A stretch of 23,101 nucleotides of DNA. It comes from Planctomycetota bacterium. Lineage in GTDB: Bacteria; Planctomycetota; Planctomycetia; Pirellulales; Lacipirellulaceae. The stretch covers positions 1 to 23,101 of the forward strand of contig JBCCXZ010000059.1 of the NCBI GenBank assembly GCA_039190745.1. The letters are read 5' to 3'. A program made the translations under genes and the position numbers. The notes beneath the pieces were generated by a model. That model searched no databases, had not been told where the DNA came from, and saw nothing but the letters and a program-made list of their open reading frames with translations. Shown here one piece after another: positions 1,113 through 3,955 of the stretch; positions within the stretch are counted from its first letter, which is position 1, and each line of letters opens with the position of its first letter.

Positions 1113-1130
1113 CAGGCACGCACTTTGCTT
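1113..1130 (+). promoter_or_regulatory. Sigma54 (RpoN) -24/-12 promoter of amtB
   Basis: CAGGCACGCACTTTGCTT: GG at 1115-1116 and GC at 1127-1128, exactly 10 nt apart, close to the consensus TGGCACGNNNNTTGCW. It lies upstream of an ammonium transporter, a classic RpoN target. Predicted start site about 1140. Confidence 0.8.
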
Positions 1131-1324: not shown

Positions 1325-2782
1325 ATGTTGTGTACTCTGCAAAAGCAGGGCTGGTTGATGCTCTTGATGGCGACGTGCTTGTCGCTGACCGCGACTACGG
1401 CGTTGCCGAACGTTACGTTCGCACAGGAAGAAGAGGCCGCCGCCGAAGAGGCTCCGGCCGAGGAAGCCGCAGAAGAAGCGGCTGAGGAAGAAGCTGAGCC
1501 GATCGACTACGCCGATCTCCGCTGGGAGATGGGCTGGACGATCAACACGCTTGTAATGTTCATCTGCGCGGTACTGGTCATCTTCATGCAGGCGGGCTTC
1601 GCCATGCTGGAAGTTGGCTTGAACACCTCGAAAAACACGGTGAACATCCTCTTTAAGAACGTCATGGACCTTTCGGTCGGCGTGCTGCTCTATCTCTTCG
1701 TGGGCTGGGGCATCATGTACAGCGGCACCGACAGCCCGTATTTCGGGTACGACGGCCCCTGGGTCAGCCGCGATGCACAGATGGCTGATGACGGCAGCTG
1801 GGAAGCTGCTCCGAACGACGCCGATGGTTCGCCTTACGCTTCATCGGGCGCCGACTTCCTGTTCCAGGTCGCGTTCGCCGCGACCGCCGCGACGATTGTC
1901 TCGGGTGCGGTTGCCGGCCGGATGCAGTTCAAGGCTTACCTTGTCTACTCCGCAGTCCTTACCGGCCTGATCTACCCGATCAGCGGCTTCTGGAAATGGG
2001 GCGGAGGGTTCCTCGATCAGCAAGGCTTCCAAGACTTTGCGGGTTCGGTCGTTGTGCACGCGGTCGGCGGTTTCGCCGGGCTTGCGGGTGCGATTGTTCT
2101 CGGCCCGCGCTTGGGACGTTACGTCAACGGCAAGAGCGTGCCGATCCCTGGCCACAACATTGCCTTCGCAGCACTCGGCGTGTTCATCCTCTGGGTCGGG
2201 TGGTACGGGTTTAACCCCGGCAGCCAGTTGACCTACGATGGCTTTGTAAACGCTGAAGCGACGACGTACATCGCTCTGACTACCACGATCTCGGCTGCGG
2301 CCGGCGCCGTAGCGGCGATGGTGTTTGCCTGGGTGCTCTTCGGCAAGCCGGACGTGACGATGGCGCTCAACGGGGCCCTCGCAGGTTTGGTGGCCATCAC
2401 GGCCAACTGCGACCGCGTGAGCCAGCCCGAGTCGCTCATTATCGGCTTGATCGGCGGCGTGCTTGTCGTGATCGGCATCATGCTGCTGGACAAGATGCAA
2501 ATCGACGACCCGGTGGGTGCCTGGCCCGTCCACGGCCTCTGCGGCGTGTGGGGCGGTTTGGCCACGGGTATCTTCGGCGACCTGCCGGACGGTATCGAGT
2601 CGCAGGGAGACTTCTTCTTCGTGCAGCTCAAGGCCACCGTCATCATCTGTGTGTGGGCGTTCGTCACGATGTTCATCCTGTTCGCTGTGCTGAAGGCCGC
2701 CGGGATTCTCCGGGTGTCTGAGGCCGAAGAGCAGCAAGGCTTGGACATCAGCGAGCACGGCATGCAGGCCTACGGAGGCTGA
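1325..2782 (+). CDS. amtB: Ammonium transporter AmtB with signal peptide and acidic Glu/Ala-rich N-terminal linker
   Basis: Amt motifs FMQAGFAMLE, FQVAFAATAATIVSGAVA, DFAGSVVVH, WYGFNPGS, DDPVGAWPVHG (twin His) and C-terminal EEQQGLDISEHG. Confidence 0.97.
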   Translation: MLCTLQKQGWLMLLMATCLSLTATTALPNVTFAQEEEAAAEEAPAEEAAEEAAEEEAEPIDYADLRWEMGWTINTLVMFICAVLVIFMQAGFAMLEVGLNTSKNTVNILFKNVMDLSVGVLLYLFVGWGIMYSGTDSPYFGYDGPWVSRDAQMADDGSWEAAPNDADGSPYASSGADFLFQVAFAATAATIVSGAVAGRMQFKAYLVYSAVLTGLIYPISGFWKWGGGFLDQQGFQDFAGSVVVHAVGGFAGLAGAIVLGPRLGRYVNGKSVPIPGHNIAFAALGVFILWVGWYGFNPGSQLTYDGFVNAEATTYIALTTTISAAAGAVAAMVFAWVLFGKPDVTMALNGALAGLVAITANCDRVSQPESLIIGLIGGVLVVIGIMLLDKMQIDDPVGAWPVHGLCGVWGGLATGIFGDLPDGIESQGDFFFVQLKATVIICVWAFVTMFILFAVLKAAGILRVSEAEEQQGLDISEHGMQAYGG

Positions 2783-2793
2783 TTATTAGGAGT

Positions 2794-2854
2794 GTGACCG
2801 CCCCCCGTGTGCCGGACCGCCACCTACCGGCACGCGGCGGGGCGTTACTTTAAC
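2794..2854 (+). terminator. Strong hairpin after amtB; possible leaky terminator or mRNA-stabilising stem
   Basis: GTGAC(C)GCCCC-CCGTGTGCCGG / loop ACCGCCACCTA / CCGGCACGCGG(C)GGGGC-GTTAC, followed by only a short T-rich tail (TTTAAC). Confidence 0.45.
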
Positions 2855-2898
2855 TCTGGTTCATTGAACGCGATTCCTTGAACGGACGTTCTTTAACA
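2844..2898 (+). repeat. Four degenerate boxA-like direct repeats, period 14-15 nt
   Basis: GTTACTTTAAC (2844), GTTCATTGAAC (2859), ATTCCTTGAAC (2873), GTTCTTTAACA (2888). The last matches the boxA consensus GYTCTTTAANA. Confidence 0.5.
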
Positions 2899-2910
2899 AA
2901 CTAGATGTGT

Positions 2911-3499
2911 TCGACTCTTGCCTGGGTCGGAATGTAGTCCCACTGGCTTGGTCACGCCCCGCCGCCTAGGCGTGGCCAAGCCGGGACTGCATTATCCAGG
3001 TCGCTACCAGATCCAGGTCGCTACCGAGAGTCGATCGGCCCGGCGGCGTCGGGCGAGACAGGCCGCCAGCGTTGTGCCGCGTGTTAAACACCCTGGGGCC
3101 GCTTCTGCTGTGCTTCTGGACCCACGCCGTGCGATCCGCCGCTGCTTGTTCACGAGACCAACCGGATGCTTCCTCCAGAAGCTGCACCTAAGAGCTGGCT
3201 TCACGCGGGTTTCAGCCGCGGACGATCGAAGGCCGTCATCCACGGCGTTCTACCGTGCGGGAATGGCGGCGGTCGGCCGCTGCGAAACCCGGTTCCCCGT
3301 CCAGAAGGGTACCCCAATGGCTTGGGAAGCGCTTATCCGCCTAGGTGCTCCCAAGCCGGGGTATCTTTCGCTTACTAGCCGGCGGGCGATCGCATAGGTC
3401 AGCGACTGCCCGCGCGGCCTCGTCGGCACTCCGGCTGGGCATTCTCCTCCGCCGTGGGTTGCCGTATCATAAAGCTTTGGACGCGACGGCACGGCGGAG
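2911..3499 (+). ncRNA. Candidate large structured RNA or mRNA spacer between amtB and glnK
   Basis: At least six long stems (2911-3034, 3077-3208, 3207-3290, 3304-3369, 3378-3418, 3447-3499). Many mismatches are G-U compatible on the + strand. No credible CDS. Confidence 0.5.
2994..3025 (+). repeat. Exact 15-bp tandem duplication
   Basis: ATCCAGGTCGCTACC at 2994-3008 and 3011-3025, separated by AG. Confidence 0.9.
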
Positions 3500-3531
3500 C
3501 AGGCGTCCGGTCTCTTACTCCCTAGAACGCG

Positions 3532-3879
3532 ATGAAACTCATCATTGCCGTCATCCAGCCCAGCAAGCTGGAAGAAGTGAAGGCGGCGCTATCCGAAGTC
3601 GAGGTCGTCCGGCTGACGATCATGGACGTGCAGGGCTTCGGCCGCCAGAAGGGCCAGACCGAGGTCTACCGCGGCCGGGAGATCTCGGTGAACCTGCTGC
3701 GGAAGGTGCAGCTGCAAATCGCGGTGAACGACGAGTTCGTGGAGCCGACCGTCAGCGCCATCATCCAGGGCGGCCGCACGGGCGACTCCGGCCAGATCGG
3801 CGACGGCAAGATTTTTGTGCTGCCGCTGGATGATTGCATCCGCATCCGCACGGGTGAGCGCGGGCCGGAGGCGATCTAG
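3532..3879 (+). CDS. glnK: P-II family nitrogen regulatory protein (GlnK-like)
   Basis: PII motifs GFGRQKG, YRG, IGDGKIFV, IRIRTGE; next to amtB. Confidence 0.95.
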   Translation: MKLIIAVIQPSKLEEVKAALSEVEVVRLTIMDVQGFGRQKGQTEVYRGREISVNLLRKVQLQIAVNDEFVEPTVSAIIQGGRTGDSGQIGDGKIFVLPLDDCIRIRTGERGPEAI

Positions 3880-3955
3880 TTCTTGTATCGAATGCCAGGC
3901 TCTGCTCTGTCTTGGCTATCCACTGCATCGGCCCGTGAAGCCAGACTACTCGGTG

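Follow-up and report, generated by a model that had tools for sequence, protein, structure and literature searches.

A bulged RNA hairpin that exposes the loop sequence CCGCCU forms a conserved module that marks the genes for the ammonium transporter AmtB and for P-II proteins across the planctomycete order Pirellulales, and this module is likely a new nitrogen-regulated regulatory RNA. It is present in two copies in the window, by which we mean the whole stretch of 23,101 nucleotides that was analysed (contig JBCCXZ010000059.1 of the Planctomycetota bacterium assembly GCA_039190745.1, family Lacipirellulaceae). The hairpins constitute a structured RNA family that is absent from Rfam 15. We infer that the module is synthesized under nitrogen limitation and that its loop is read in trans; the recognizing partner would be a protein, a ligand or another RNA.

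The window starts with ftsY (2-889, + strand), which is followed by amtB (1325..2782, +; Pfam PF00909, E 7e-126, the single match in the genome) and a P-II gene of the glnB/glnK type (3532..3879, +; Pfam PF00543), called glnB in the following. The spacer between the latter two comprises 749 nt and houses both hairpins. Four P-II family genes are encoded in the genome (assembly of 3.9 Mb, 95% complete) and the module occurs only at the amtB-linked one; the genes without module are located at C4:72550-72867, C61:15231-15551 and C16:52229-52522. The sigma-54 gene rpoN is present. A search for Hfq gave no match in this 95% complete genome and the CsrA family was found with eight matches above the Pfam cut-off, distributed over several contigs. 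Eight CsrA-family genes and no Hfq are an uncommon complement of RNA-binding regulators.

Copy 1 of the module extends over positions 2931..2993 and copy 2 over positions 3304..3369, both on the + strand, with scores of 83.5 and 77.1 bits against the covariance model. The initial annotation had given the two sequences and their segmentation exactly, and both + strand copies indeed form the bulged hairpin that it described, from outer stem to loop with a bulge of 3 nt on the 5' side. In copy 1, the outer stem is followed by an ACU bulge, a GGCUUGG/CCAAGCC helix, an inner stem and the 10-nt loop CCGCCGCCUA, in which CCGCCU occupies positions 2962-2967. Copy 2 is built in the same order with an AAU bulge, has CCGCCU at 3337-3342 and carries the tail UCUUUCGCUU. 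As had also been proposed, the outer and inner stems differ in sequence between the copies and pairing is kept. The + strands fold with -44.2 (copy 1) and -44.4 kcal/mol (copy 2), corresponding to z values of -7.27 and -7.24, and none of 200 shuffles folded as well as either copy; folding of the reverse complements is weaker, at -38.0 and -31.0 kcal/mol (z -4.9 and -3.8). The pattern GGCTTGG-N10-40-CCAAGCC occurs twice in the window while 0.02 occurrences are expected, and not one of 100 shuffles reached two. When a looser pattern was run over the whole genome, six places were found, with the CCGCCT loop and the CCC/GGG flanks only in the two window copies, and the covariance model retrieved just these two from the genome at E<=1. 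Many copies at unrelated intergenic sites, which the initial annotation had named as the hallmark of an ordinary repeat family, are therefore not what is seen: both copies of the genome reside in the amtB-glnB spacer.

The hairpin stands as originally delimited, and the conserved unit is longer because a second, small hairpin, P1 (UCGACUC-UUGCCU-GGGUCGG; 2911..2930, +, from folding), directly abuts copy 1. P1 belongs to a conserved 5' block, CTCTTGCCTGGG, that is invariant across families. It is likewise adjacent to the main hairpin where other families have a single copy, and it exhibits a change from GGCUC/GGGCC to GACUC/GGGUC. The direct repeat ATCCAGGTCGCTACC, present twice directly after copy 1 (2994..3025, +), can lengthen the copy 1 hairpin by pairing with CCUGGG of P1. 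These repeats are missing from a genome of the same genus and are therefore probably not part of the module. Just 3' of the amtB stop codon, a further strong hairpin with a weak U tail is located at 2795..2850 (+). The fold of 2786-2862 has -43.6 kcal/mol (z -4.8), the hairpin is 100% identical in the same-genus genome G001, and a terminator scan did not flag it.

The consensus structure was derived from 126 matches, corresponding to 121 distinct rows. With an alignment fitted to the model and genomes that are kin, so that the figures lean towards structure and the counts overstate independence, standard pairs make up 93.6% of cells compared to 82.7% after column shuffling and 32-54% with the partners slid, both partners have changed in 23 of 25 pairs, and the cells with such double changes number 333 versus 58 in shuffles. 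Given the slid controls and the many pair types, the helix is secure despite the model-fitted alignment. With 402 G-U pairs compared to 59 A-C pairs, it is the gene-sense strand that has been selected to fold. The loop comprises 8-13 nt, mostly 10, follows the consensus NNNCCGCCUR and contains CCGCCU in 124 of the 126 matches. The initial interpretation is supported in part: the designation as a defined module holds in structure as well as in loop sequence, and specific recognition of the module is presumed. On the other hand, the 3-nt AMT bulge noted for the two window copies persists across the family as a feature and not as a sequence: a 5' bulge is always present in the 126 matches, measures 2-6 nt and is A-rich, with variable sequence. 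The 5' strand CCAGAAGGAUGCCCC is conserved beyond what pairing needs. Neither a pseudoknot nor a junction is supported, and no alternative switching fold was seen. A leader peptide, for which an SD-like AAGGA and an AUG in the bulge could have spoken, was rejected, as the AUG is replaced in many copies (by AAG, ACG, GUC and others) and its distance to CCGCCU varies out of frame.

The first relatives came from a pattern scan, in which the same hairpin appeared upstream of a P-II gene in five genomes, four from other families of the order and one from the family of the window. In these five relatives, the hairpin is extended by a conserved 5' block, ACTTCGGCTCTTGCCTGGGCCAGAAGGATGCCCC, and by a tail rich in U. 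Two covariance models were used, R1 built from seven sequences and R2 from the 126 matches, and the order was taken as the records labelled Pirellulales. Within the family of the window, R1 matched 91 of 101 genomes (62 of 67 high-quality ones), and in the order it matched 123 of 151 genomes from 28 of 30 families; the two families without match are f7 (0/1 genomes) and f19 (0/9). None of 150 genomes sampled from the rest of the phylum gave a match with R1. In a sample of the class, R2 detected the module in 26 of 35 genomes of the order and in none of 115 genomes from other orders. Among the matches listed for a pattern search in a species collection, R1 scored 15 of 80 selected stretches, all of them titled Pirellulales, Pirellulaceae, Planctomycetia, Planctomycetaceae or Planctomycetota; the other 65 listed, including one titled Pirellulaceae, were without R1 score, and the pattern matches listed are mostly chance occurrences from GC-rich genomes.

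The statement that the hairpins belong to no known family is supported by Rfam 15, whose 4227 models gave no match at the gathering score in the window and in the loci of the five relatives. At E<=10, positions 2700-3600 yielded four hits at chance level, with 10-16 bits compared to thresholds of 39-62. The full-text literature that we searched, with few subscription journals among it, contains no description of the module. No regulatory RNA of nitrogen control has to our knowledge been described for Planctomycetota. Rhodopirellula-1 is the sole planctomycete motif without an Rfam number known to us. Those rows of its supplementary Stockholm alignment that were available (Weinberg 2010) share no block with the module when compared by eye, and this identity was rejected.

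An enrichment of matches near nitrogen genes would, according to the initial annotation, support a regulon. In fact, 55 of 58 loci from numbered genomes lie beside amtB and/or a P-II gene, and the remaining three are a contig end (L197) and two units of a predicted sigma-54 promoter and the module without a gene after them (L236, L244). A P-II gene follows the best copy in 33 of 34 loci, mostly at a distance of 79-619 nt and once at about 1.3 kb; the 34th locus is the interior of an array that follows amtB. Within the DNA examined, amtB is situated upstream in 20 of the 34. Every detected hairpin is on one strand in all 58 loci, and arrays have none on the other strand. Where amtB and glnB are apart, one copy is found after the amtB stop with no co-directional gene next (L192, L194, L196) and another before glnB (L193, L195, L198, L200, L202). 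At two glnB loci where amtB is not adjacent (L198, L200), the gene for an OmpL-like beta-barrel porin (PF07642) comes first, and the predicted sigma-54 promoter, the module and glnB come after it. Operons of the type amtB-module-P-II are present as three paralogues in one genome.

Copy number varies from one, which is usual outside the family of the window, to about 20, and most genomes have one to four copies. Arrays have a period of about 70-100 nt; R2 found 16 (G023) and 20 (G054) matches. Three genomes share the order of predicted sigma-54 promoter, amtB and an array of CCGCCU hairpins without U tails, and in two of these genomes 19 and 16 hairpins were counted. A predicted sigma-54 promoter and a module stand on their own in L244 and L236, where no co-directional gene follows. 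The stand-alone unit of L244 has two direct repeats of about 120 nt on its 3' side (3160-3345).

All promoters described here are consensus matches and thus predicted only. In the window, a predicted sigma-54-type promoter, AGGCACGCACTTTGCT, with the arrangement GG-N10-GC, was found upstream of amtB at 1114..1129 (+) in a consensus scan. It is the sole + strand site in the window at <=2 mismatches, so that no such site lies between amtB and the hairpins. About 28 nt past this site, in the presumed amtB 5' leader, begin three repeats of GCCAC(T/C)CCGGC with a period of 16 nt (1157-1199). In amtB-linked relatives, a predicted sigma-54 site is located upstream of amtB wherever enough DNA is present. 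We scanned 74 non-redundant glnB loci for TGGCAC-N5-TTGC(A/T), keeping GG and GC fixed and allowing <=1 mismatch. A predicted site was present in 37 of 45 loci without amtB directly upstream, always before the first hairpin; in the 29 loci that do have amtB there, the stretch from amtB to the hairpins is free of such sites. The stretch from the last hairpin to glnB has no sigma-54 site in any of the 74 loci. Predicted sites are on the forward strand in 24 of 44 loci and on the reverse strand in two.

A different type of promoter is predicted past the module. The window has a sigma-70-like glnB promoter, TTCTCC-N17-TATCAT, downstream of copy 2 (3442..3470, +); the motif scores below the threshold of a generic scan and is identical in G001. 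In relatives, the pattern TT[CG][AT]NN, 16-18 nt, TANNAT, mostly in the form TTGAGR-N17-TACGAT, precedes the glnB ATG, downstream of the last hairpin, at 26 of 73 non-redundant loci; it occurs in none of 73 control stretches of equal length taken upstream of the hairpin, and shuffles give an expectation of 0.3. Fixed -10 and -35 elements before each module were ruled out, there being no information peak and only mild A-richness at -21 to -7. TTGAAC-N18-TAGATG (2878-2907) is weak as a promoter and its -35 element is not conserved in the same genus; it was likewise discarded.

The last hairpins of relatives frequently end in a U tail, with at least six U among the eight nucleotides after the stem in 43 of 73 cases. 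Array copies have no U run after the stem, and the tails of the window copies are weak, neither being flagged as a terminator by the generic scan. In many relatives (L044, L051, L053, L056, L059, L066, L069 and others), purine-rich repeats of about 7 nt stand directly after the last hairpin; their complement, a pyrimidine-rich stretch, extends to the glnB start codon. The predicted glnB promoter lies between the two stretches in these relatives, and the window has neither of them.

We tentatively put forward, with a confidence that stays a little short of even, that the module is a nitrogen-regulated, modular element resembling a small RNA, the invariant CCGCCU loop of which is read in trans. 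Upon nitrogen limitation, a sigma-54 activator would switch on transcription. The transcript would be amtB with one or several modules as its 3' or intercistronic part, as in the window, and where amtB is absent the module would be transcribed alone. The stable hairpin may end or protect the RNA, the U tail of many relatives being terminator-like. A partner would then be bound by, or base-paired with, the exposed loop, and the number of binding sites would rise with that of the modules. glnB would be served in addition by its own sigma-70-like promoter past the last module. Because the U tails of both window copies are weak, transcription started at the amtB promoter could continue into glnB there. 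We prefer reading in trans because the U-less arrays between amtB and glnB make no sense as attenuators, because the same loop is kept 3' of amtB with nothing following, because stand-alone promoter-module units exist, and because glnB has a predicted promoter of its own.

Several points speak against this reading: the genome has no match for Hfq, conserved -10 and -35 elements at a fixed distance before the module are missing, and no sigma-54 site separates amtB from the window copies, which are not flagged as terminators and could simply be intercistronic. A search of sequencing runs with positions 1400-3900 of the window listed no RNA run that contains this stretch. Searches for a partner of the loop yielded none and gave the following picture. 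GGCGG is not enriched before glnB, where it occurs between -60 and +3 in nine of 73 loci without a positional peak. Pairing of the loop in cis with the ribosome-binding region of glnB was rejected on this basis, a 10-nt match being found in two genera. In the genome of the window, AGGCGG precedes long open reading frames by 4-14 nt in 38 cases (with a short upstream extension). Nine of ten control hexamers gave 19-40 cases, a range that includes the 38 of AGGCGG, and the tenth, AGGCCG, gave 50. Inspection of the glnA region for a target yielded nothing usable.

The closest parallel to a nitrogen-regulated RNA acting in trans is NrsZ from Pseudomonas, described as an RNA induced by NtrBC/RpoN with three similar stem-loops, one shared loop sequence of which pairs with the target (PMC4253122). 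Both are non-coding RNAs in a nitrogen-regulation locus with a sigma-54 promoter (here predicted by consensus), and both consist of repeated stem-loop modules exposing one loop sequence, which in NrsZ is the functional part. The planctomycete module has two properties of an NrsZ-like class, a sigma-54 promoter (by consensus only) and repeated modules with a shared loop. Homology was rejected: the NrsZ loop holds ACAGGCAG (PMC4253122) while the loop described here has the unrelated sequence CCGCCU, and there is no Rfam match. Further differences are another phylum, ntrC as the neighbour instead of amtB/P-II, and processing and a target demonstrated for NrsZ, whereas the planctomycete module is known here from sequence; moreover, planctomycete modules also occupy 3' and intercistronic positions at amtB and reach about 20 copies.

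Copies directly after amtB have a second parallel in GlnZ. GlnZ depends on Hfq, whereas Hfq was not found in the genome studied here. GlnZ has been described as a small RNA that enterobacteria release from the glnA 3' UTR (PMC9731577), an RNA of nitrogen limitation that stems from the 3' end of an NtrC-controlled mRNA for nitrogen assimilation. It differs from the module in gene, sequence and taxon, and it is not modular.

A role in cis is the main alternative, if a somewhat unlikely one. A protein bound to bulge and loop would set how much sigma-54/amtB transcription passes the terminator-like hairpin into glnB, or the stability of the amtB 3' or glnB 5' end. A position between a nitrogen promoter and glnB suits an attenuator equally well, and the module is in fact always placed between the predicted sigma-54 promoter or amtB and glnB and never past the glnB promoter. 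The U-rich tails of 43 of 73 last hairpins point in the same direction, as do the intercistronic location and weak U tails of the window copies; a 5' bulge combined with a fixed loop is typical of hairpins bound by proteins, and pairing alone does not require the degree of conservation seen in the 5' strand CCAGAAGGAUGCCCC. However, it is not obvious what arrays of 16-20 U-less hairpins in the amtB-glnB spacer would do in attenuation, copies with the invariant loop are found 3' of amtB where no gene comes next, predicted sigma-54 promoter and module stand alone in L244 and L236, and glnB has its own conserved predicted promoter after the module. Furthermore, in the loci examined no conserved neighbour gene was found as a candidate for the binding protein.

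Decoy RNAs offer a bolder possibility, which we consider distinctly unlikely: between one and about 20 CCGCCU hairpins, driven by sigma-54, may soak up an RNA-binding regulator, possibly a diverged member of the CsrA family. CsrB/RsmZ sponges resemble the module in presenting many repeated hairpins with one short loop motif per transcript, and the genome has eight CsrA-family genes. CsrA binds GGA motifs, whereas the loops of the module have CCGCCU and most genomes possess only one to four modules. Since the loops are not of the GGA type, a link to CsrA is no more than daring. An identity with CsrB/RsmZ sponges proper was rejected, the loops following NNNCCGCCUR and GGA occurring only in the paired 5' strand of some copies. 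If the decoy reading were true, ammonium uptake and P-II signalling would be coupled to a global post-transcriptional switch, and Planctomycetota would have a CsrB-like system with a new recognition code.

We regard it as quite improbable that general RNases suffice to account for the module, which would then be an RNase III/E site or a protective 3' hairpin that uncouples the amounts of amtB and glnB mRNA. An RNase III-type site was among the options named by the initial annotation. Very stable, long and perfectly paired hairpins in intercistronic or 3'-terminal position would suit such a processing or stability element. A site for a general nuclease, however, needs neither a 6-nt loop that is invariant in 124 of 126 matches over 28 families nor the conserved 5' block. 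It would be expected in other operons as well, yet the genome has two copies only, and arrays of about 20 would go unexplained.

A metabolite riboswitch, for example for glutamine or 2-oxoglutarate, with the bulged hairpin itself as the aptamer, is very improbable. The glnA RNA is a junction-and-pseudoknot aptamer, whereas the module is a simple bulged hairpin that has no match to the glnA RNA covariance model. The glnA motif is tied to P-II and ammonium-transporter genes and sometimes occurs in tandem (PMC2864571). These associations and the tandem habit are shared by the module, which like the glutamine riboswitch is a structured RNA at P-II, ammonium-transporter and other nitrogen genes; the glnA RNA is found in cyanobacteria and marine samples, the module in a planctomycete order. 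The module further has invariant unpaired nucleotides and, in many relatives, a U-tailed hairpin in the 5' leader. Against this, neither the glutamine riboswitch nor any other Rfam model matched even at E<=10, the hairpin that holds the conserved nucleotides is simple and very stable, neither a pseudoknot nor a junction is supported, a switching fold was not seen, and copies at the amtB 3' end as well as arrays of 20 copies are atypical of riboswitches.

An ANTAR antiterminator target was also rejected. Such targets consist of two tandem small hairpins with hexanucleotide loops, the second of which overlaps a terminator, while the module forms a single long, bulged hairpin whose loop measures 8-13 nt and in most cases 10. 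Plain intrinsic terminators share with the module the GC-rich hairpin followed by a U run, seen in the last copies of 43 of 73 relatives; they differ by lacking order-wide conservation of loop and bulge, and the window and array copies have no good U run. An ordinary repeat or plain terminator, that is a dispersed REP-like element or a neutral duplication, has next to no credibility: the tandem arrangement and the widely varying copy number between genomes would fit, but this reading is already contradicted by the presence of just two copies in one spacer of the genome, the placement at amtB and P-II genes throughout the order, the compensatory changes in 23 of 25 pairs together with the invariant loop, and the strand-specific folding.

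The module is a clean and testable candidate, order-wide and supported by covariation, with predicted sigma-54 promoters and with the AmtB/P-II pair that governs ammonium uptake. Should it act in trans, it would represent a second, independently evolved instance of the NrsZ design, a nitrogen-induced RNA composed of repeated modules that present a loop, and it would give access to post-transcriptional control in a lineage that apparently lacks Hfq. Should it act in cis, it would be a new class of attenuator for P-II expression. In both cases, spacers that are now blank in hundreds of genomes and metagenomes can be annotated with the covariance model.
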